A DNA stretch of 20,000 nucleotides from an uncultured virus (IMG/VR IMGVR_UViG_3300009432_000684) (Duplodnaviria > Heunggongvirae > Uroviricota > Caudoviricetes), in the IMG/VR virus record IMGVR_UViG_3300009432_000684, one strand, 5' to 3'. Shown piece after piece: positions 1 through 10,097 of the stretch. A model generated the notes under the pieces. It ran no database searches and was not told where the DNA came from. It saw only the letters and a program-made list of their open reading frames with translations. Numbering within the stretch: position 1 is the first letter of the stretch; each line of letters opens with the position of its first letter. A program made the position numbers and the translations under genes.

Positions 1-3000
1 GAAAGATCGTTATAAGCTACTGAATAAACTGTTTTAAGTTCACCTGTTCTATCTTTAATTTTAGGAGGTTGTGCTGTTCCTAGTACGTCATTGTATGTAT
101 CATTAAGAGCGTTAACTGTAGCTCCAAGTTGACCCGATGGTGATTTAAGATCTGTAAATGCTGCACCAAACGACGGAACTGCTTTTATCAAAGAATTATT
201 AACTAACGTTGATGTATCGCCAATTAAATCAGTACTTTGAATTCCTTCAAATCCATCGCCAATGTCATCAACAAAGTCTTTTGCTGAAAAACTATTGCCA
301 GCAAATTTATTTGCCATTTGATTAGCTGTTGTTCCTGAACTAAATTTAGCTATATCTCCAGTTACATTATTCTTTAAAGATGTTATTGCTGCAGATGCTT
401 GCGAACCAGTGTTTGATAGTTTAGCAACTATATTTTGATTTATTTTAGCTGCGTTAGCTATTGAACCAGTTAAATTATTTGTTAAAGAACCTGAAGAGTT
501 TTTAACCTGTTCCATTAGTAGAGCAGCTTGATTAGTTGAACGTGTTTCTTCATTAGGGTTTACACTATTAGATTTTTGACTTTCTAGTACTTTAGCATTA
601 GTTGGTAGATCTTCTTTTAATATCGTTTTATCTACTACTTGTACTATTCCTACGTTTCCAGGAGTAGACTTTGACGATTGTCCTGGCCTTCTCATTAAAC
701 TTATTGTTTGTGTAAACTGTCCTTGTCTAAACATGCTTGATACTTTCCAAACACTGTACAATCCACTAAATTGAGGAATTACTAACGGCGTATCCATTAA
801 CGCTCCTGATTCTTGGTAATCAAAAGGAGTTCTAAAATTAACAACTACAAACACTTCGCCCCTAGTATAGGTCATTGTGCCGTCATCTGTAGTATTTGGA
901 GAAGCACCTGATTGCTTAGGAGCATAATTTCCTATTTCTTGTGGAAGAAAAAATGGGTCTCCCCAAATGTCCATTTCAACAGCAATCATATCAGTTACTT
1001 GATTCATTATTGAATCATGAAATTGTTCAGCAATTTGACGTCTGATATCAAGACTTCTACTAGCATGTGCATTACCCGATGCTATTACTTCAACAACAGT
1101 TGCCGAAGCTTCTGTATTTAATTTCATTTTATCTGTATTGCCTGCGGCTATCGCGCCTTGGGGCAACGCATCACTAATGACTGTAGAGTTTGCAGCCTTA
1201 GATTGAGCTGCGCCTGAGTTGTTACCGTAACCAGCTAGTGCAGTTTTCATAAAGGCAGTATTAAACATGATATCAAATCTAAGTACATCTTCGTTAGAAC
1301 CTGTATATAGGTAATCGTATTGTTTAGCTGCTGCAGCTTTTAATCCTGGAGTATTCTTAGGAACTTGTCCGTTACCTAATGTTTTTGCTTCATCTGTTTC
1401 GTAAGGAATAACAGCATAAACAAAAACAGCAGGAGGTCGTCCAATTTTTTGTTCTGTTTCTTTGTTTTCATCTAGATAACAATGTGTGTCAATTCTAAAC
1501 CATTTCTTTATACCCTTATCATCACTCTCTTTGGTTGCATTGTCTTTACAATACTCACTGTTTAATAAAGTTTTTTCGATAGATTTTGTTATTTGGGCAC
1601 CTTGTTCAAATTGATTAATTCTGCCTTTAGTTCCAGTTTGTGTTGAAACAGCATCTTTTCTAATTAACTGAGATTTTGCAGGATCAGAAAGTCCGTCGGC
1701 GCCAGTATATGATCCATTCAAGCTGGACATTTTTTGGTCGCCACCTTCTGCGTCATCTTGAACTAACGTTGATTTTCCAATCTCATTCATTTGTGCAACA
1801 TCAGAGGCAAATGCTAGTAAGGTTTCAAACATATCTGTAACTGGTTTTAATCCAGTTGCACTAGTAACATTTTCTTGTCCAAACATTAAATCTTCAGTAA
1901 CATCTGCACCTGCATTAAATTGAGTTGTTTCTTCTTCCGTCATACCCTTTTCGGTCATTACTTGTTGTAGCTTTGTTGTTGTTTCAGGTTTACGTAATCC
2001 AGTTGATAGATACTTAAGAATACTATCTGGATCTTTTGGAAAGCAAATAATATAACGATCGTAGCCCGGAATAATATTAGAATCTTCCAAAGCTTCAATT
2101 CTTTTGTTCATGCTTGCTGTTAAAGATTCATTACCTGTTTGCAAAATTTCATGAACTAAGTTTCCAGGCGCATTAATGTTTGTCATAATCTTATTAACAT
2201 TATCTGATAGACCTAAATCAGTGTATGGTATTGCTTGAACATCATACTCGCAACCTTTGCCTGTTACCCGCATGTCCATTTGATTTATTTTTAAAGGAAG
2301 GTATATAGGTTTGAGAGTTGAAGGAGTTCCTGATTCGTCCCATCCAGTAAAATCAATTCTTATGCAAAAAGGACATGAGTAATAATTTTTGTATCCTGAT
2401 TCTATTGCTGCGCCAACAATTGCTTGGGGGAAGTTTCCCATCGAAAACGGTTCAATAACTTTAAAAGTAATTTTCATACCTGCGGAAACACCCGTGGCAG
2501 GGTTCGGAGCAATTAGAGCATCATGCTGAAAGTCTTCTATGAAATATTCACCGTGACCTCCACGTTCTTTTTCGTCAAGAACTTGGTATCTTTTTTCAAG
2601 AGAGCCGCCACTGCTTTTTATAACATATTTTGCAAAGCCACCGGCTTCTCTATATAAATTAGGATTATTAAATTCTTTTGCACTTAATACTCCCATAGTA
2701 AATTTATAATTATATGAACTAAAATCACGTAAAGGATTTGGAATTCTGCTTTTAGCGTTACCGCTATTAATTTCTGGCATTCCTTGCATGCGAGGGTCTA
2801 CATAGTTGTCATCAACAAACTCACTGAACGCACTTAGTATACTATTATTTTCAGCAGCTTCTCTTAGCTTAGAAAATTTACCAACAGCGCCATCCATAAT
2901 TTCGGCAGCACCTCTTTCTATTATTCTTATTTTACTATCAACTAAGCCTGCTAGCTCTGGGGCGTTATCTGTAATTCTTTTTAAACCTGCTTGAATCCCT

Positions 3001-3290
3001 TCAAAACCGTCTCCAATATCGTCGCCTAAGTAATCACTAGCATCAAACTTTATATTAGATAAGGCTGCTGTAGCTTTTTTCCCGCCAAATCCTGTTATAG
3101 AATTAATTTGGCTTGCAACATTACTATTTCCAGTAGCTGTTTTTATTGCTGCATTAGCAATAGTTCCAGGAAGCCCAGATGTAAGACTAGAAGTAACACT
3201 ACTAGCTGTAGCCCGGGCATTGTCTACCGAATTTACTGCATTTGATACTTTTGAGTCAAAGCTTTTTAGCTTAGAGATAAAGCTTGCCAT
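1..3290 (-). CDS. Large baseplate hub protein (gp27/gpD-like), truncated at the left window edge, >=1096 aa
   Basis: ATG at 3290 directly follows the stop of the gp53-like gene. Parts translated by hand: MASFISKLKSFDSK..., PNPLRDFSSYNYKFTMGVL, FKVIEPFSMG, YDYLYTGSNEDVLRFDIMFN, EMDIWGDPFFLP, FSGLYSVWKVSSMFRQGQFTQTISL. The last two resemble the C-terminal GDP / SGxYxIxxVxxxF pattern of hub proteins. No stop in the parts read; its absence from the ORF track fits it running off the edge. Confidence 0.7.
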   Translation of the reverse strand, partial: MASFISKLKSFDSKVSNAVNSVDNARATASSVTSSLTSGLPGTIANAAIKTATGNSNVASQINSITGFGGKKATAALSNIKFDASDYLGDDIGDGFEGIQAGLKRITDNAPELAGLVDSKIRIIERGAAEIMDGAVGKFSKLREAAENNSILSAFSEFVDDNYVDPRMQGMPEINSGNAKSRIPNPLRDFSSYNYKFTMGVLSAKEFNNPNLYREAGGFAKYVIKSSGGSLEKRYQVLDEKERGGHGEYFIEDFQHDALIAPNPATGVSAGMKITFKVIEPFSMGNFPQAIVGAAIESGYKNYYSCPFCIRIDFTGWDESGTPSTLKPIYLPLKINQMDMRVTGKGCEYDVQAIPYTDLGLSDNVNKIMTNINAPGNLVHEILQTGNESLTASMNKRIEALEDSNIIPGYDRYIICFPKDPDSILKYLSTGLRKPETTTKLQQVMTEKGMTEEETTQFNAGADVTEDLMFGQENVTSATGLKPVTDMFETLLAFASDVAQMNEIGKSTLVQDDAEGGDQKMSSLNGSYTGADGLSDPAKSQLIRKDAVSTQTGTKGRINQFEQGAQITKSIEKTLLNSEYCKDNATKESDDKGIKKWFRIDTHCYLDENKETEQKIGRPPAVFVYAVIPYETDEAKTLGNGQVPKNTPGLKAAAAKQYDYLYTGSNEDVLRFDIMFNTAFMKTALAGYGNNSGAAQSKAANSTVISDALPQGAIAAGNTDKMKLNTEASATVVEVIASGNAHASRSLDIRRQIAEQFHDSIMNQVTDMIAVEMDIWGDPFFLPQEIGNYAPKQSGASPNTTDDGTMTYTRGEVFVVVNFRTPFDYQESGALMDTPLVIPQFSGLYSVWKVSSMFRQGQFTQTISLMRRPGQSSKSTPGNVGIVQVVDKTILKEDLPTNAKVLESQKSNSVNPNEETRSTNQAALLMEQVKNSSGSLTNNLTGSIANAAKINQNIVAKLSNTGSQASAAITSLKNNVTGDIAKFSSGTTANQMANKFAGNSFSAKDFVDDIGDGFEGIQSTDLIGDTSTLVNNSLIKAVPSFGAAFTDLKSPSGQLGATVNALNDTYNDVLGTAQPPKIKDRTGELKTVYSVAYNDL

Positions 3291-3590: not shown

Positions 3591-4528
3591 TATACAAATC
3601 CCTCCTTGCCATTAACAAATCCACCTTTAGCAAACGTATTAAGATTAAACTTAGCAGTTGTTCTTCTTGAGTATTGTGGAGTTACTGTTATTGTAAACTG
3701 AGATTGTACTGGAACCATATTCTTTTCGCCTGAAGGCAGTGTTACTTCAATATAATCAACATCGGCTGGTAAGTCAGTTGTAAAGTTAGAAATTACAATT
3801 GGAATATTATTTAATACATGCGGACCGTATCCGTTTAGTCGACATACCGGAGGCGGATTACCTTGCGGAGCACTATCACCATAAAACATCTTAGTAACTG
3901 TTCTTAAAAAGTGTAATACTGCAATCCAGTATAATCCATCTTTTTGGTTTTCATTGTAAAACTCGCCTGTAATTGTTATATTGTCAACTGAGCTGTTTTC
4001 ATAAGCATTGTAAGCATAGTTTGTATGAGTTGGAACTATTTGAGAATAACTTGCACTATGCCCTAGTAGTATTGTAGGATTAAAAGGAAATACCATTTTA
4101 CCACCTGAAGTAGCGCCGGTAGTAGCTCCTAATGAATCTTCCGATTTTAAGGGTTGTAATATTGGTCCTTCTGCAATCTCATTAGGAACACTAATAGAAA
4201 CTCTCCAATCCATATTATCAAAGTTTGTATCTATGTTTTGAGAAAGTATAGCCACCGCAGCTTTTTTATCTGGGGGTGCAGCCATATACGCAAGCCCTTG
4301 CTGTGCGTTTCCTTGCATTCTAATAGAACTGCCAAAGCCTCCTGTAGTGCTTCCACCAAAGGTATTCCTTACTGCGGCTTGTGCTCCACTGCCAATTGAC
4401 CCACTTCTGTTAAAATTTCGGTCTGCAGAGAGGTTTCTATTAAAAGAACGAATAGATTGGGCGGTATTACTACTGCCTACAGCGGACGCTAGCCTGCTTG
4501 TTAATTGGTTAAAACCGTTAGTTGCCAT
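3590..4528 (-). CDS. Tail tube initiator / baseplate-tube junction protein (gp48/gp54-like, CIS tube family)
   Basis: Motifs MVFPFNPTI, ITITGEF, GNPPPVCRLNGYG, IPIVISNFTTDLP. Start moved from TTG 4537 to ATG 4528 because GGAGA (4539-4543, minus) is 10 nt upstream of 4528 but only 1 nt from 4537. Confidence 0.65.
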   Translation of the reverse strand: MATNGFNQLTSRLASAVGSSNTAQSIRSFNRNLSADRNFNRSGSIGSGAQAAVRNTFGGSTTGGFGSSIRMQGNAQQGLAYMAAPPDKKAAVAILSQNIDTNFDNMDWRVSISVPNEIAEGPILQPLKSEDSLGATTGATSGGKMVFPFNPTILLGHSASYSQIVPTHTNYAYNAYENSSVDNITITGEFYNENQKDGLYWIAVLHFLRTVTKMFYGDSAPQGNPPPVCRLNGYGPHVLNNIPIVISNFTTDLPADVDYIEVTLPSGEKNMVPVQSQFTITVTPQYSRRTTAKFNLNTFAKGGFVNGKEGFV

Positions 4529-4613: not shown

Positions 4614-5465
4614 ATGAGAAAAAAGAACTATTTAAATAACAAAGATATATTGAAGCAAATACACAAATCTAAAAATACGTTTAACAGCTACACAGCGCCT
4701 GAACACGGCAACTATGATATAATCCTATTAGACGTAGATAAGATTAATATGAGAACACTTGCCGAAGCAAAGCGTAACAAAGCTAAAAGACTTAGCGGTG
4801 AAGAATACGAACGAAGGAAAATGGCTGGAGAAAAGGTAAAACAAGCTGAATGTGAAACTCCTTATAAGAGTATTACTAAAGAAGAGATTATCTTTAGAGT
4901 TATGACATTCGATCATATTCCGGAAGAGCCTGGCAGGAAGAAAAATCCAAAAACTGTTGCCGATACTAAAGAAAAATTAAACTTTCCTCCTTTTGTGCAT
5001 TACAAGTACAATGACGAAGGAGAGCTAATAGTAGTTGGTAAGAGTCATTGGCAAGGTGGTATGGAAAACGGACACTATTCTAGGTCACATGGTAAAGCTA
5101 ATGATGAGTTAGCTATGATGTGGATTAAATTATGTGAAAGATACGCAACGAGAGGCAATGTACGTGGTTACACTTACAATGACGAAATGCGTGGACAAGC
5201 TATTTTACAGTTAACACAAATTGGTTTGCAGTTTGATGAGTCTAAAAGTCAAAATCCGTTTGCATATTATACAGCCGCAGTTACTAATAGCTTTGTACGA
5301 GTTATCAATATTGAAAAACGCAACCAAAACATAAGAGATGACATCTTAGAGATGAATGATCTTAATCCGAGTTATACTAGACAGCACCAAGGTGAGTGGG
5401 AAGCTAGTGTAAAACGCAACGAAGAAGCCGGTACTAGCGTTTATACTGATAAAACTTCAAAATAG
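4614..5465 (+). CDS. gp55: T4-type late-transcription sigma factor with a large insertion
   Basis: N-terminal NYLNNKDIL and C-terminal RGNVRGYTYNDEM...QFDESKSQNPFAYYTAAVTNSF match the T4 gp55 pattern (NYVNNKEL...NFSGYT...NFDETK..NPHAYITQACFNAF); directly upstream of gp47-gp46 as in T4-like phages. Confidence 0.88.
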   Translation: MRKKNYLNNKDILKQIHKSKNTFNSYTAPEHGNYDIILLDVDKINMRTLAEAKRNKAKRLSGEEYERRKMAGEKVKQAECETPYKSITKEEIIFRVMTFDHIPEEPGRKKNPKTVADTKEKLNFPPFVHYKYNDEGELIVVGKSHWQGGMENGHYSRSHGKANDELAMMWIKLCERYATRGNVRGYTYNDEMRGQAILQLTQIGLQFDESKSQNPFAYYTAAVTNSFVRVINIEKRNQNIRDDILEMNDLNPSYTRQHQGEWEASVKRNEEAGTSVYTDKTSK

Positions 5466-5535: not shown

Positions 5536-6549
5536 TTGTTTAAGAAAGCAGCAGTCTTTACAGATATTCACTTTGGATTAAAAGGGAATAGCCGTATACA
5601 TAACGATGATTGTGAAGACTTTATTGATTGGTATATAGAAACTGCAAAAGCCGCTGGTTGTGAGACTGGTATCTTTTGCGGTGACTGGCACCATAATAGA
5701 AATTCACTTAATCTTACCACTATGGATGCAACTATCCGTTCAATGGAAAAACTAGGTCAAGCATTTGATCAGTTTTTCTTCTTTGATGGTAATCATGACT
5801 TATATTACAAAGACAAGCGTGATGTTAACAGTACAGCGTTTGCAAAACATATTCCCGGTATTACTTTTGTAGATCAAATTACTACAATCGAGGATGTAAC
5901 TATTGTTCCTTGGTTAGTTGGTGATGAATGGAAACAAATTAGTGATATTAAATCGAAATACCTATTTGGACACTTTGAACTTCCTAGCTTCTATATGAAT
6001 GCGTTAGTTAAGATGCCCGACCATGGTGATTTAAAGCCTGAACACTTTAAACACCAAGAATACGTGTTTAGTGGACACTTTCACAAACGGCAGCATCAAG
6101 GAAAAATTAATTATATTGGAAATGCCTTTCCGCACAACTATGCAGATGTGTGGGATGATGATAGAGGCATGATGATATTAGATCGTGAGAACAATAAAGA
6201 GCCGGAGTTTATTAATTGGCCTGATTGTCCTAAATATCGCACAATTGGATTGAGAGCATTACTAGAAGATACTGAAAACTTAATTAAACCTAAGATGTAT
6301 TTGCGTGTTACTATTGATGTGCCAATATCTTACGAAGAAGCTAGTTTTATTAAAGAAACATTTGTTAAAGACTATCAATGCAGAGAACTTACACTAATTC
6401 CACAGAAGCAAATTGATGAAATGACTACAGACTTAGATATTTCAGCGTTTGTTAGTGTAGATCAAATCGTAGCTGGTGAAATTGCAGAACTTGATACTGA
6501 CAGTTTTGATAAAGTAACCCTTATGGACATTTATAACGGACTCGAATGA
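5536..6549 (+). CDS. gp47: Recombination endonuclease subunit, Mre11/SbcD-like metallophosphoesterase
   Basis: Phosphoesterase motifs DIHFG, GDWHH, GNHD, GHFE, SGHFH; TTG start with RBS; ATGA overlap with gp46. Confidence 0.92.
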   Translation: MFKKAAVFTDIHFGLKGNSRIHNDDCEDFIDWYIETAKAAGCETGIFCGDWHHNRNSLNLTTMDATIRSMEKLGQAFDQFFFFDGNHDLYYKDKRDVNSTAFAKHIPGITFVDQITTIEDVTIVPWLVGDEWKQISDIKSKYLFGHFELPSFYMNALVKMPDHGDLKPEHFKHQEYVFSGHFHKRQHQGKINYIGNAFPHNYADVWDDDRGMMILDRENNKEPEFINWPDCPKYRTIGLRALLEDTENLIKPKMYLRVTIDVPISYEEASFIKETFVKDYQCRELTLIPQKQIDEMTTDLDISAFVSVDQIVAGEIAELDTDSFDKVTLMDIYNGLE

Positions 6550-8318
6550 TAAAAATTAAAGACCTAACGGTAAAAAACTTCATGAGTGTGGGCAATCAAA
6601 CCCAGGCTGTAGATTTTGATCAAGCACAGCTAACACTTGTACTAGGTGAAAACTTGGACCAAGGTGGTGACGACAGTGGAAGTAGGAATGGTACTGGTAA
6701 GACAACTATCATTAATGCATTAAGCTATGCATTGTATGGTATGGCGTTGACTAACATCAAACGTAACAACCTTATTAACAAAACTAACGGCAAAGGCATG
6801 GTAGTTACCCTGCAATTCGAAAAAGACGCTACAGCCTACCGTGTTGAGCGTGGCAGAGGCCCTAATTTCCTTAAATTCTATATCAATGACAGAGAACAAG
6901 AGTTAATTGACGAGTCACAAGGTGATTCACGTAAGACACAGGAAACAATTAACGAATTACTTGGTATGAGTCACGATATGTTCAAACATATTGTAGCACT
7001 AAACACATATACCGAACCTTTCCTAAGCATGCGGTCAAATGATCAACGTGCAATCATTGAACAACTGCTTGGTATTACTATACTCACTGAAAAGTCTAAC
7101 TCTCTTAAGGATAGGATTAAAGAAACTAAAGATGCTATTACTGTAGAGACACTAAAGATTCAAGCTGTTGAAACATCTAATGAAAAAATTAAAGCAAGTA
7201 TTGAGCAACTAGCTCAACGGCAACGTGCTTGGAAATCAAAGCACCGTAAAGACAGTCAAGATCTTAGTAGTGCAATAGATGAACTAGAACATTTAGATAT
7301 TGACACTGAACTAGAATCACATGAAAAGTTAGCTAGTTGGACACAGCATAACAATACTATTTTGGCTCTTAGAAAAGAACTTAGTACATTAGAGCCTGCA
7401 TTATTACGTGCTGACAAGTCTGTAGAAAAGTTAACTAAAGATATCGCAGATCTTGAAGATGCTACTTGTTATACATGCGGTCAAGAGCTACATGCAGACA
7501 AAAAAGCAGAGATTGAAGGACGTAAAACTAAAGAACTTGCTGATGCTATTGCATATCAAAAAGAAATAGGTGATAAACTAGTTGGAGTTAGTAAAGGTCT
7601 TGAAGATATTGGTGATATTAACGGAAAGCCTAGTACATACTACGAAACTGCAAAAGAAGCATACGATCACAGAAGCAATGTAGAAAACTTAAAGGCATCT
7701 TTAACTAGAATTGCAGAAGAAGATGATCCTTACCAAACACAAATTAATGATTTAAACGACACAGCTATGCAAGAAATTAACTGGGGTGCAGTTAATGATC
7801 TAGTTAGTTACAAGGACCATCAAGAATTTCTAATGAAGCTACTTACTAACAAAGATAGCTTCATTCGTAAGAAGATTATTGATCAGAACCTAGCATACTT
7901 AAACAACAGACTTACATATTATCTCGATAAGATTGGTTTGCCGCATCAAGTACTATTTTTAAACGATTTAAACGTTGAAATTACACAACTAGGACAAGAC
8001 TTAGACTTTGATAACTTGTCAAGAGGCGAACGTAATAGGCTTATCTTAGGCTTGAGCTTTGCATTCCGTGATGTTTGGGAAAGTTTATATCAAAATATTA
8101 ATTTGTTGTTTATTGACGAGTTAATTGATAGCGGAATGGATACTGCTGGCGTTGAAAACTCTCTAAGCATACTTAAAAAGATGGGCAGAGAGCGAGACAA
8201 GAACATATATCTTATTTCGCACAAGGATGAGTTAATTGGTAGAGTTAATCATGTTCTTAGAGTTGTAAAAGAAAATGGTTACACAAGCTATGCTAATGAC
8301 TTAGATGTGGTAGAATGA
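6546..8318 (+). CDS. gp46: Recombination ATPase subunit, Rad50/SbcC-like
   Basis: KNFMSVG N-terminus, Walker A NGTGKTT, coiled coil with zinc-hook CYTCG, signature LSRGE, Walker B LLFIDE, H-loop ISH. Confidence 0.93.
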   Translation: MIKIKDLTVKNFMSVGNQTQAVDFDQAQLTLVLGENLDQGGDDSGSRNGTGKTTIINALSYALYGMALTNIKRNNLINKTNGKGMVVTLQFEKDATAYRVERGRGPNFLKFYINDREQELIDESQGDSRKTQETINELLGMSHDMFKHIVALNTYTEPFLSMRSNDQRAIIEQLLGITILTEKSNSLKDRIKETKDAITVETLKIQAVETSNEKIKASIEQLAQRQRAWKSKHRKDSQDLSSAIDELEHLDIDTELESHEKLASWTQHNNTILALRKELSTLEPALLRADKSVEKLTKDIADLEDATCYTCGQELHADKKAEIEGRKTKELADAIAYQKEIGDKLVGVSKGLEDIGDINGKPSTYYETAKEAYDHRSNVENLKASLTRIAEEDDPYQTQINDLNDTAMQEINWGAVNDLVSYKDHQEFLMKLLTNKDSFIRKKIIDQNLAYLNNRLTYYLDKIGLPHQVLFLNDLNVEITQLGQDLDFDNLSRGERNRLILGLSFAFRDVWESLYQNINLLFIDELIDSGMDTAGVENSLSILKKMGRERDKNIYLISHKDELIGRVNHVLRVVKENGYTSYANDLDVVE

Positions 8319-8527
8319 AACAGGTAGATGATGTACATGACCAGTTAGTAAAGGCATACTTGGCGTATTTTTCTGAAAACGAGAAGTTTGAAGATCGAAA
8401 CTCAGTACGTACACATCGGTCTGTTAGAAAAGCATTAAGAGATATTAGGACATTTGCAAAATTAAGAGCAGATGAAATTCACGAAAAGCACATAACAACA
8501 AGAGTAACTCACAAAGGCGACAAATAA
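8315..8527 (+). CDS. Small basic helical protein, possibly histone H1-like Hc1 family
   Basis: 70 aa, ATGA-coupled to gp46; ENEKFEDRNSVRTHRSVRKALRDIRTFAKLRADEI resembles the KF..GN.AA..RARKAL.E.....K..R..I pattern of Hc1-like proteins (recognised by eye). Confidence 0.45.
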   Translation: MKQVDDVHDQLVKAYLAYFSENEKFEDRNSVRTHRSVRKALRDIRTFAKLRADEIHEKHITTRVTHKGDK

Positions 8528-8551: not shown

Positions 8552-9001
8552 ATGCAGTGGACTTACGAAGGCAACAAGATTGACCAAATACCGGACGACT
8601 ACGAAGGATTTGTTTATCTTATTACCAACACCACTACAGGTCAGAAATACATAGGCAAGAAACTAGCAAAGTTTAAAACTACTAAGCCACCACTTAAAGG
8701 CAAGAAAAATAAACGTCGTGGAACTAAAGAAAGTGACTGGAGAGAATATTATGGCTCCAGTGATAGACTGAACGCAGACGTTGAAACACTAGGCGAAGAT
8801 AAGTTTACAAGAGAAATACTATACCTATGTAAAGGTAGGGGCGAAATGTCCTACATAGAGGCAAGAGAACAGTTTGATAGGCGTGTACTTGAAACAGATG
8901 ATTACTATAACGGTATCATAAATGTTAGAGTCGGTGGATCAGACAAACTCAAACAGGCACTGCTAGAACATCACATACAGGCAAAACATTCCAACACATA
9001 A
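8552..9001 (+). CDS. Stand-alone GIY-YIG (Seg-like) nuclease domain protein
   Basis: GFVYLITNTTTGQKYIGKK (GIY-YIG), YYGSS, FTREIL, candidate catalytic E in SYIEARE and N in YYNG; 149 aa with no C-terminal DNA-binding domain. Confidence 0.85.
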   Translation: MQWTYEGNKIDQIPDDYEGFVYLITNTTTGQKYIGKKLAKFKTTKPPLKGKKNKRRGTKESDWREYYGSSDRLNADVETLGEDKFTREILYLCKGRGEMSYIEAREQFDRRVLETDDYYNGIINVRVGGSDKLKQALLEHHIQAKHSNT

Positions 9002-9390
9002 GGTTGGCGGGCCAGATTATAATACCGCTGTGGAAAAAGCTCTCGTATAGAAGCACACGTACATATTGATTGACACACCAGAGTGTGGAAGCCACCAAAC
9101 AAATTGGGCTCACTAGTTGATATAGATTGAATTGTTGGCAGTCGAAAAACACTATATAGTTTGTAGAAACCCCTTAGCAACAGGAACGAAGCGGGGGAAT
9201 ATTGTTACATATAATGTACATTGTATATTATAAGCAACATAATGTCGACGTAGGTTGGGAAAGGTCAGAGCCCATCAAACTTGTGTATAAACAAATACCT
9301 ACTTCCAATGTCTTGGCGAATGTGCGACTCACATGAGGTTTTAAGATTAGGTGGGACTAGAAATAGTTCCGTCTGACAAAAACAATCTAC
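8991..9390 (+). ncRNA. Candidate large structured non-coding RNA (family not recognised)
   Basis: No credible ORF; many helices found by eye, including G-U-rich stems, a GAAA tetraloop (9347-9376), a three-way junction (9250-9302) and long-range pairings (9123-9129/9383-9389, 9105-9111/9268-9274, 9141-9145/9245-9249). Boundaries approximate. Confidence 0.6.
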
Positions 9391-9402
9391 ATGAAGTTAA
9401 CA

Positions 9403-9509
9403 CATTATCATTTACATGATAATGCTTTAATGTATTCAATAACTACTATTAATAACGAAGTGTAAGTAGTTTGAGCGTTAGCGAAAACTTGTATGAGCTT
9501 GCTCATACA
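9403..9509. repeat. Cluster of short inverted repeats
   Basis: CATTATCAT-ttac-ATGATAATG (9403-9424); AACTACT...AGTAGTT (9441-9447/9465-9471); GTTT-GA-GC-gtta-GC-GA-AAAC (9469-9488); TGTATGAGC-tt-GCTCATACA (9490-9509). Confidence 0.85.
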
Positions 9510-9542
9510 TTAATAGTTTATCTAAGTTTGAAATAAATATGT

Positions 9543-9550
9543 TATAAATA
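9543..9550 (+). promoter_or_regulatory. T4 late promoter TATAAATA
   Basis: Exact consensus; flanked by AATAAATA (9532-9539) and TATAAGTA (9553-9560); upstream of the two MKINE genes. Confidence 0.8.
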
Positions 9551-9584
9551 CATATAAGTAACTATAGTGCTTAAAGGAATAGAT

Positions 9585-10097
9585 ATGAAGATTAATGAAT
9601 TATCGAGATCACAGCAAGTTGATGAAGTACCTGCTGGTGGCTTATCTCAACTAGGTAATAAACTTGGTGCAAAGATATTAAGTAAGATACCTGGTGGTGC
9701 TGCAAAGTCCAAAGCTGGCAACATGGCTGGCAAAGCTGACTTAGGTGATACAGCAAATAACTTACACAAAGAGTTTAATACATATCTAGGTACTCAGGGC
9801 AAAAAAATGGCCCAAGCAACTGGCGAAGAGCTAAGTGCGTTTTTACAATCTAAAAAACATAAAACATCTGCTACTATTCCTAGTGGTGTTTTACAAAAGA
9901 AACAACTTGATGCTGTACTAATGCAAGCTGCCAAAGAAGCACTAGCTGGTAAAGGCGGAGTACCGGGCACAGCAGGAGCACCTGTTAAAGGTGGAGCAGG
10001 CGGTAAAGGCAAAGCAGTAATACCTGATAACATATTAGCTCAACTAAAGCAAATGAATCCTGAGCAAAAACAACAATTGGCAGGAATGTTACAATGA
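9585..10097 (+). CDS. Hypothetical late protein (A/G/K-rich), probable virion head-associated
   Basis: AAAGGA RBS (9573-9578) favours ATG 9585 (MKINELSR...) over GTG 9567; downstream of a late promoter; ATGA-coupled to the next gene. Confidence 0.7.
   Translation: MKINELSRSQQVDEVPAGGLSQLGNKLGAKILSKIPGGAAKSKAGNMAGKADLGDTANNLHKEFNTYLGTQGKKMAQATGEELSAFLQSKKHKTSATIPSGVLQKKQLDAVLMQAAKEALAGKGGVPGTAGAPVKGGAGGKGKAVIPDNILAQLKQMNPEQKQQLAGMLQ

Follow-up and report, generated by a model that had tools for sequence, protein, structure and literature searches.

A large structured RNA with twin motifs downstream of a small GIY-YIG gene in uncultured marine T4-like phages

Several described systems resemble in part the RNA reported here. 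The RNAs GOLLD, ROOL, HEARO and OLE are several hundred nucleotides long, contain many covarying helices, were found comparatively, are in some cases phage-borne and have no known function. Lambdoid nut and put RNAs carry two linear motifs, each followed by a hairpin, which covary between phages and lie upstream of terminators. T4-like phages harbour group I introns together with GIY-YIG endonucleases. ColE1 RNA II is a non-coding transcript of about 550 nt, a similar size, made toward an A+T-rich stretch, and one of its upstream segments reportedly pairs with template DNA close to the origin. Transcripts of T4 oriF and oriG are likewise made toward A+T-rich sequence; the T4 family starts replication from R-loops, its origins consisting of a promoter and an A+T-rich unwinding element, with the R-looped transcript processed to a primer by viral RNase H (PMC3016281). 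Here, a stretch of 20,000 nt from an uncultured virus (IMG/VR record IMGVR_UViG_3300009432_000684, Caudoviricetes), referred to as the window, was analysed together with its metagenomic relatives. It almost certainly encodes a member of a previously undescribed family of plus-strand RNAs of ~410-440 nt, which in uncultured marine T4-like phages directly follow a small GIY-YIG nuclease gene.

With GOLLD, ROOL, HEARO and OLE the phage RNA shares its size, its many helices and the way it was found, but it has no Rfam match and is limited to one marine T4-like clade, and to our knowledge none of those RNAs contains two motifs that covary as direct repeats, as R1 and R2 do here. The nut and put RNAs are 30-70 nt long and stand in two separate operons, whereas here both motif copies lie 58 nt apart in one 400-nt fold. 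ColE1 RNA II and the T4 origins have no sequence or Rfam relation to the phage RNA, which is far more constrained, with three predicted pseudoknots and an invariant core. T4-like group I introns have the same GIY-YIG neighbour, a similar P3/P7 order and a variable hairpin at the P6 place, but the phage RNA is without P8, exons or Rfam match, and no splice junction was seen in contigs.

Conservation, covariation and fold

An initial annotation of the window had proposed a plus-strand RNA of ribozyme-like complexity (8991-9390) in its only long gap between open reading frames (ORFs). The gap was borne out. Between genes ending at 9001 and starting at 9585, positions 9002-9584 are the sole long stretch of the window without a plausible gene, and contain ORFs of 44 amino acids (aa) on the plus strand and 67 and 69 aa on the minus strand only. 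Viral contigs were searched with the protein encoded downstream, yielding 13 loci. In those with enough flank the gap was alignable over its full length at 73-77% identity, and 9245-9415 was nearly invariant, with conservation above that of the flanking genes. A 21-nt core pattern was present in at least 120 viral contigs, and a second, independent anchor (R1...R2) again yielded at least 120; 38 of the 113 second-anchor contigs with at least 95 nt upstream were without the first pattern, and these were the source of core variation. Overall, uncultured marine T4-like phages keep the region in more than 200 related loci. Among prokaryote genomes the core pattern was found on three contigs in two metagenome-assembled genomes (MAGs), apparently mis-binned phage. 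A blastn search against 50,697 phage records matched the nuclease gene alone and nothing in the gap, and a covariance model of the 3' domain found no match in PA5oct, Phosso, Vibrio phage 2.275.O or Melnitz (syntenic 14 kb and whole genomes). The RNA family is confined to one uncultured clade of marine T4-like phages.

The conservation profile and the mutual information (MI) between columns were calculated from our own MAFFT alignment of 101 unique sequences. Helices were tested on alignment A2, a separate MAFFT run of 86 sequences retained from 118 by a k-mer redundancy filter; PKz, Y and Z were tested on 63 sequences retained from 236 (redundancy filter, divergent ones first). In A2, a model of 12 helices had 89.5% of its cells paired, against 34.7-40.6% when the 3' partners were slid by 1-3 columns. 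Changes on both sides occurred in 49 of its 79 pairs, and there were 598 double-change cells compared with 196 +/- 14 in shuffles. None of 500 shuffles matched the model on any of five measures, in a test that is inflated by kinship among the relatives. MI recovered the local hairpins and three long-range pairings. G-U pairs were plentiful in A2 (column pair 124/153, GU 46 and AU 27; 205/301, UG 65; 206/300, GU 68); since these would be A-C mismatches on the opposite strand, the RNA is the plus strand, as initially proposed. The 12 covarying helices, with a loop-to-junction pseudoknot of 3 bp, also bear out the complexity ascribed to it.

Folding energy, which the initial annotation had said would refute the RNA if indistinguishable from shuffles, went the other way. 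The minimum free energy of 8991-9390 was -96.2 kcal/mol, with a mean of -89.3 (sd 5.65, z = -1.22) for dinucleotide shuffles; 16 of 100 shuffles folded as well or better, and the minus strand gave z = +0.27. By single-sequence fold energy the region is not distinguishable from chance. This result is outweighed because both conservation and covariation were found among relatives.

The consensus derived from the alignments (Table 1) has three predicted parts, namely a 5' domain that J closes, a compact core with K crossing Y and the pre-Y junction paired to the Z loop, and a 3' domain comprising W and F; J, K/Y and PKz make up its three predicted pseudoknots. The 5' strand of J overlaps the last codons of the nuclease gene; its pairs vary as CG/AU/GC and AU/GC, with an MI of 0.96 for 8991/9138. 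The highest MI values of the whole RNA lie in K (1.23 for 9161/9278, 1.11 for 9159/9280 and 1.07 for 9160/9279). PKz, exposed by the second anchor set, varies as GAC/GUC, GAU/AUC, GUG/CAC and AGU/ACU. Variants of W, read by eye, change UCUCGG/UUGAGA to UCUUGG/UUAAGA and UCUCGG/UCGAGA. GNRA loops cap B and F: B is reduced to a GNRA-capped mini-hairpin in the shortest relatives, and the loop of F, GAAA in the window, is variable and often GNRA-like elsewhere. The core is fixed while the periphery is swapped between lineages, in the interior of Pd (in the window a hairpin, 9074-9078/9083-9087), in the length of B and, in the L006 type, in the whole 5' domain, which is closed by GGAC/GUCC instead of J. 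Invariant segments of the core are GGAACGAAGC, which forms the nearly invariant loop of X, AAAGG..AGAG and UUCC.

Two long-range pairings put forward by RNAalifold on our own MAFFT alignment were rejected. For GUAGGUUG/CAAUCUAC, relatives with GCAGGU retain AUCUAC, yet their ACCUAC becomes ACCUGY. For GGUCAGA/UCUGACU, the Z-loop variants GCACAG, GAUCAG and GACUAG occur with an unchanged CUGAC, and covary with the junction GAC.

The helices listed in the initial annotation are all present as complementary letters in the window, and six of the twelve were supported by covariation. These were TGGCGG/CCGCTG (Pa), CCCC/GGGG (in X), the long irregular stem (the variable stem B), GTAGGT/ACCTAC (Y), CACAC/GTGTG (seen by eye, and only in relatives having that sub-domain) and the GAAA-capped 13-bp stem, of which 11 pairs stood (F). 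The other six gave no covariation signal, namely CCAAC/GTTGG, CCAA/TTGG, ATGTG/CACAT and all three long-range pairings, TAGATTG/CAATCTA, TTGTTGG/CTGACAA and GTCGA/TCGAC. Jointly they were 69.8% paired, equal to the shuffled mean of 69.8% (253 of 500 shuffles at or above), with a covariation score of 0.051 vs 0.052, and their bases pair elsewhere, in J, Pe and W.

Rfam 15 (4227 models) gave no match at the gathering score in the whole window, none at E<=10 in 8800-9700 and none at E<=1 in 20 diverse relatives, and ARAGORN found no tRNA or tmRNA in the window; the statement that the RNA could not be assigned to tRNA, tmRNA, RNase P or group I/II introns thus stands, as does its novelty. The topology of the RNA does not suit RNase P RNA, tmRNA or a group I intron. 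RNase P RNA, whose P4 is built from the conserved CR-I and CR-V sequences, was rejected on the lack of an Rfam match; the segment GGGAAAGGUCAGAGCCC, which has only a loose likeness to CR-I, pairs locally as Z and PKz. GOLLD, ROOL, HEARO, riboswitches and small ribozymes were set aside for lack of an Rfam match. A tmRNA was excluded by the lack of a tRNA-like domain in ARAGORN and of an Rfam tmRNA match; the two-piece tmRNA reported for Melnitz is placed at another site of its genome, ahead of the coactivator gene (PMC9004378). No description of the RNA was found in the literature at the level of abstracts. One survey of 10,006 candidate structured viral RNAs mined IMG/VR intergenic regions for motifs of 29-151 nt (PMC10690425). 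Its searchable supplements, which do not include the alignment and model files, contained no match to four 13-nt strings of the RNA; fragments of the RNA may be listed among its candidates.

The stretch 8930-9309 is matched at >=90% identity by contigs assembled from four RNA libraries of four studies; such contigs say nothing about strand or ends and could derive from DNA carry-over. In the four runs there was no contig cover at 9344-9427, which is uninformative, as contigs break in strain-conserved regions. No joint across the RNA (9000-9400) was present in the contigs of these libraries, which cannot prove its absence.

Many viral contigs (L016, L029, L044, L075, L110, L117 and others) end within the RNA or at most 300 nt from it, at scattered positions. 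Most likely these ends are assembly breakage at a stretch hyper-conserved between co-occurring strains and not a physical genome end. A divergent contig (L238, 210-363) keeps R1, R2 and a GUAUGAC tail, has another hairpin in place of F and is unrecognisable in the Y/Z region; it may represent a second, more distant branch of the family.

Table 1. Features of the RNA and its surroundings, in positions of the window
Feature	Positions	Strand	Evidence or remark
GIY-YIG nuclease gene, small, stand-alone, 149 aa	8552-9001	+	SegE_GIY-YIG PF19835, E 1.2e-36; phrog_447, E 6.8e-41
Structured RNA	8985-9397	+	Approximate extent, from conservation (101 unique relatives) and pairing
J, 5' strand CCAACA, pseudoknot	8991-8996 with 9133-9138 in the Pe loop	+	99.1% paired; both-sided changes in 5/6 pairs
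Pa	9006-9010/9025-9029	+	93.8% paired; both-sided changes in 4/5 pairs
Pb	9030-9032/9056-9058	+	88.5% paired; both-sided changes in 3/3 pairs
Pc	9039-9044/9050-9054	+	77.6% paired; both-sided changes in 5/5 pairs
Pd, closing helix of peripheral domain	9064-9072/9114-9122	+	86% paired; both-sided changes in 7/9 pairs
Pe hairpin	9125-9129/9139-9143	+	89.9% paired; both-sided changes in 5/5 pairs; loop 9133-9138 is the J 3' strand
K, long-range	9153-9163/9276-9287	+	Pseudoknot with Y; five inner pairs with 3-4 pair types each
X helix	9170-9174/9193-9197 and 9177-9178/9191-9192	+	95.4% paired; both-sided changes in 4/7 pairs (UA/CG, CG/GC)
B, variable-length hairpin	9199-9243	+	Alignments; MI 0.67-1.02 for 9203-9206 with 9236-9239
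PKz, 5' strand GAC	9247-9249 with 9264-9266 (GUC) in the Z loop	+	98.9% paired; both-sided changes in 3/3 pairs (63 sequences)
Y	9250-9255/9297-9302	+	Variants GCAGGU/ACCUGC, GGAGGA/ACCUCU; encloses Z and the K 3' strand
Z	9256-9259/9271-9274	+	Variants AGGGA/UCCCU, UGGA/UCCA
W arm	9310-9316/9341-9347	+	78.2% paired, both-sided changes in 4/7 pairs (A2); 64.5% paired in the 63-sequence set, weak alignment
R1, ACTCACATGAGG	9327-9338 (core 9331-9337)	+	Apical part of W; core identical to R2 in 97/101
F hairpin	9349-9359/9364-9374	+	90.4% paired (A2); both-sided changes in 6/11 pairs (63-sequence set)
R2, AATCTACATGAAG	9384-9396 (core 9389-9395)	+	Single-stranded tail after F; core identical to R1 in 97/101
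H1 hairpin	9403-9424	unassigned	In 101/122 unique downstream sequences
GUUU-GA-GC-loop-GC-GA-AAAC hairpin, tandem G-A pairs	9469-9488	unassigned	Motif in 88/119 sequences
H2 hairpin	9490-9509	unassigned	Plus-strand loops GAA (40), GTA (14)
T4-type late promoter TATAAATA of gene 9585-10097	9543-9550	+	Kept in 7/7 sequences of alignment A1

Parallel variation of R1 and R2

The cores of R1 and R2 vary in parallel as direct repeats: of 101 unique sequences, 97 have identical cores at the two sites, and among the 32 with a non-consensus core the number is 28. Nine haplotypes are shared between the two sites (ACAUGAA, ACAUAAU, ACAUGAU, ACGUGAA, GCAUAAA, GCAUGAA, ACAUGAG, GUAUGAA and ACAUAAA). When R2 was shuffled among sequences 10000 times, the number of identical pairs averaged 50.9 and reached at most 63, and no shuffle attained 97; kinship inflates this test, and the independent co-changes number no more than the non-consensus haplotypes. 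Of the four exceptions, one (L054) reflects a misalignment, its two motifs both reading ACAGAAA by eye. Matching columns of R1 and R2 are mutual best or near-best MI partners. Core position 8 is G in R1 of 99 of 101 sequences and A (56), G (40) or U (5) in R2; G can pair with the complement of either A or G. Across relatives the spacing between the motifs is 54-68 nt.

Complements and further copies were sought in several ways. The reverse complement of the R 7-mer was absent within +-1.5 kb in 19 of 20 loci examined, and no alignment column covaries with the R motifs as a complement. In four records of 116-138 kb the motif was not enriched over a control pattern on either strand, and no complement in trans was found. 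The window contains no further copy besides R1 (R2 is one base short of the pattern used). Pairing of R1 with R2 was excluded by hand, the CAUA, GCAU and GUAU variants breaking every antiparallel register. Translational bypass from R1 to R2 in the style of gene 60 was also excluded, there being no conserved ORF and a stop after both sites.

Two sites that are kept identical must each match a common partner, and only the antisense strand of R2 changes automatically with R2; R1 would on this logic pair with the antisense of R2. We give a probability of roughly 45% to the reading that R1 pairs with the antisense strand of R2, as template DNA or antisense RNA, and that the RNA is a cis-acting element of its own locus. 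The fold would present R1 at the tip of arm W, where it could pair with the template DNA of its own locus at R2, or possibly with an antisense transcript. The transcript would thereby stay hybridised to the template, or re-invade it, at the edge of the A+T-rich, hairpin-bearing spacer, and the resulting R-loop might serve as a replication primer or origin, by the logic of T4 oriF/oriG and ColE1 RNA II. That the RNA is such a preprimer, setting up an R-loop at this spacer, is a more tentative proposal, possible rather than probable. Two features expected of an R-loop origin were found: a stretch of RNA that could pair with the template close to the RNA's 3' region, given by R1 = R2, from which we infer the pairing with DNA, and a downstream A+T-rich unwinding element (GC 0.21-0.30). 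Counting in favour of an origin-like setting are also the conserved spacer hairpins, of one type on opposite strands, and the place of the locus between early and late genes. Judged from the sequences at hand, that the RNA reads its own locus appears to be the best-supported functional idea; the identity of R1 and R2 is what was observed, and the later steps would build on it.

A number of points weigh against this reading. T4 R-loop origins, according to a review, require no specific RNA sequence or fold (PMC3016281), and an RNA of 400 nt with three predicted pseudoknots and long invariant single strands seems far beyond the apparent needs of the task; it rather resembles a core for catalysis or for binding a ligand or a protein. 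GC skew in the window tracks gene orientation and flips near 4500, not near 9400. H1, which resembles an intrinsic terminator in roughly half of the relatives, would set the RNA free shortly past R2. Nascent R2, with the same sequence, is already on the template, which makes the need for R1 questionable. Two sites also vary in parallel when one factor binds both, as at lambdoid nutL and nutR, and a syntenic 70-aa protein (p70) varies along with the R haplotype. Finally, kinship inflates the shuffle tests, and the independent R changes are at most as many as the non-consensus haplotypes. The stronger form of the proposal, that this is a new class of large phage RNA reading the DNA of its own locus, in which the fold sets a programmable R1 loop of 7-8 nt against the antisense strand of R2, we regard as unlikely.

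Competing explanations

Of the alternatives to pairing with the R2 antisense strand, the one that survives best has R1 and R2 as binding sites of one phage factor, with the large fold as a scaffold; we consider it somewhat unlikely. The factor could be a protein such as the arginine-rich p70 or a small RNA encoded elsewhere in the ~380-kb genome, acting on RNA polymerase or on transcripts at the boundary of early and late genes, by nut/put-like processive antitermination or as a free ribonucleoprotein. Each R motif is followed by a hairpin (F after R1, H1 after R2), as boxA is by boxB in lambda nut; this unit of motif and hairpin occurs twice upstream of H1 and H2, where an effect on read-through would be an analogy only, and the locus is closely followed by one or two terminator-like hairpins and by a late gene. 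p70 is encoded upstream in 68 of 131 loci and is predicted with confidence to form a two-helix hairpin (predicted local distance difference test 90.6) with invariant arginines. Its columns have a median MI of 0.40 with the R haplotype (top 1.03 of 1.35), against a median of 0.11 for GIY-YIG columns, and both p70 subtypes that occur with haplotype ACAUAAU have 'RP[AS]E' in place of the consensus 'RNSV'. These MI values are, however, phylogenetically uncorrected and inflated by the fast evolution of p70, and one locus (L046) combines the variant R ACGUGAA with the consensus p70 motif. The protein has no relative in Pfam, PHROG or PDB; the PDB sequence search gave nothing significant, and the best fold matches, at E about 0.9-1, were generic hairpins. 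With nine R haplotypes in otherwise very similar RNAs, the specificity of a protein would have to drift often, which base pairing does more easily, and no RNA partner in trans was found in the 116-138 kb of each of the four records.

A new ribozyme or ligand-sensing RNA, in which the pseudoknotted core (K, Y, Z and PKz) would form a catalytic or binding pocket and R1 and R2 would serve as a pair of sites, for substrate or processing, recognised alike, is a less probable option, and we hold it to be quite unlikely. Its size, its three predicted pseudoknots and its long runs of invariant unpaired sequence are common traits of ribozymes and large riboswitches, and a fixed core with a freely swapped periphery (Pd interior, B, the 5' domain of L006) would suit such an RNA. 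Against this, no ribozyme or riboswitch of Rfam 15 matched, there is no internal guide complementary to R1 and R2, and contigs of the RNA libraries have no end or joint at R1 or R2, although contigs cannot show ends.

That the RNA is a guide of the neighbouring GIY-YIG nuclease in homing or defence, with R1 as the guide and the DNA of R2 as the cognate site, as for the omega RNAs of TnpB/IscB and the IS110 bridge RNA, is very unlikely. Like the omega RNAs of TnpB, the phage RNA begins within the 3' end of the nuclease gene, and it was by a loop covarying with a DNA site close by that the guides of bridge RNAs were identified. The order gp46, p70, GIY-YIG and RNA is kept: upstream of the RNA, tblastn found the nuclease in 101 of 131 loci and gp46 in 71, most loci without a match having just 300 nt of flank, too short to judge. 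The nuclease translation shows FVY...YIG, Arg, Glu and Asn motifs, and the catalytic motifs look intact by sequence; a PDB sequence search with the nuclease gave no significant match. The link between nuclease and RNA is nevertheless not obligatory. One locus (L054) has the RNA without a GIY-YIG homologue in 1.5 kb upstream; four others (L028, L036, L065 and L084) have another small ORF between nuclease and RNA and retain the 5' motif of the RNA; and in Melnitz phages the nuclease (67.6% DNA identity) stands beside ribonucleotide reductase while the RNA is missing. The conserved AGGCAAA directly ahead of the RNA is read in another frame in the L006 type, and is therefore conserved as nucleic acid and not as protein. 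A protein of 149 aa is also small for holding a 400-nt RNA, and no publication linking GIY-YIG with RNA guidance was found at the level of titles and abstracts. An omega or bridge RNA proper was rejected, as the window has no TnpB, IscB or IS110 gene and the RNA is not obligately tied to the nuclease.

That the RNA is a degenerate or atypical group I-like mobile intron bearing a homing endonuclease of the GIY-YIG type, like those of T4 td and nrdB, is extremely improbable: such endonucleases and introns do travel together in T4-like phages, K crosses Y in the order of P3/P7 (an agreement in order only), X and B lie between them at the P4-P6 place and Z at the P7.1 place of subgroup IA, but Rfam group I models gave no match even at E<=10, P8 is missing (a short A-rich linker, 9288-9296, takes its place, and in most relatives the 7-13 nt between the 3' strands of K and Y hold no conserved hairpin), no gene is interrupted, the flanking genes being complete and the downstream one having its own late promoter, and the four RNA libraries contained no joining contig, which contigs cannot prove absent.

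Genome setting and significance

The source phage was judged T4-like from the gene content of the window. A gp55-type late sigma factor is encoded at 4614-5465 (phrog_12791, E 3e-78), gp47/Mre11-like and gp46/Rad50-like proteins at 5536-8318, and p70 at 8315-8527, between gp46 and the nuclease gene; baseplate proteins and a T4-type portal are also encoded in the window. The locus lies at the boundary between this early block (sigma factor, gp47, gp46) and the late genes. Late promoters TATAAATA stand ahead of structural genes at 9543, 13419, 13451 (minus strand) and 18712. Having its own late promoter, the next gene (9585-10097) places the structured RNA outside its late mRNA leader. The downstream gene varies, a p170 homologue being present in just 30 of 131 loci.

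The nearest cultured gp46 is that of the Pseudomonas jumbo phage PA5oct (49% identity). RNA-bearing metagenomic contigs of 116-138 kb (G002-G005) were rated 31-36% complete; together with one related contig of 335 kb, this indicates a genome of probably about 380 kb. The 335-kb contig bears the RNA and comes from a MAG binned as Neomarinimicrobiota, and another RNA-bearing MAG contig was binned as Crocinitomicaceae.

In gene 9585-10097, contigs of two RNA libraries have a 30-nt in-frame insertion at 9973-9974, and one contig 'goes back 52', which suggests that the product carries a length-variable Gly/Ala-rich repeat. The block upstream of the RNA is variable as well, three loci (L010, L012 and L013, ~2275-3025) having an additional ORF of 239 aa between a 63-aa protein and the nuclease gene. 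In the cultured Sinorhizobium phage Phosso (469 kb), the same gp47-gp46 neighbourhood contains a 1-kb gap without an annotated gene (L260, 9410-10425), GC-richer, rich in complementary runs and directly before an RNase HI gene. It was matched neither by Rfam nor by the 3'-domain covariance model, and may be an unrelated structured RNA.

Downstream of the RNA, GC content falls to 0.21-0.30 at 9400-9600, against ~0.38 for the window; an intergenic promoter region would look alike. At least 5 T occur in the 9 nt after H1 in 51 of the 101 sequences that have this hairpin. Its plus-strand loops are mostly TTC, ATTC and TAC (GAA, GAAT and GTA on the minus strand), and its plus-strand stems gave 22 A-C and 9 G-U in a crude script count. 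H1 may act as a terminator, perhaps in both directions, and H2 is scored as one on the minus strand. The two are one hairpin type (C-GNA-G triloop) on opposite strands, flanking the tandem G-A hairpin, and could be convergent terminators or hairpins forming in single-stranded DNA.

The RNA is a real, new, large and topologically complex phage family. New classes of RNA that reach 400 nt and contain several pseudoknots seldom come to light; those described before turned out to be ribozymes, riboswitches or RNA machines of an unexpected kind. The family is abundant in ocean viromes, with at least 120 loci by each of two anchors, and carries the unusual signature of two short motifs that co-change as direct repeats and not as complements. 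Even if its function is ordinary, it offers a defined consensus structure for probing and cryo-EM, and it merits an entry in RNA family databases, so that such gaps in phage genomes are no longer left blank. If the loop does address its own DNA, this would be a new way for an RNA to specify an origin or other DNA site: an RNA-specified, sequence-addressed replication origin, or some other DNA transaction addressed by RNA, for instance a nick made by the adjacent GIY-YIG nuclease. A structured RNA would then mark a DNA site naturally and independently of protein, in a manner that differs from CRISPR, omega and bridge RNAs.

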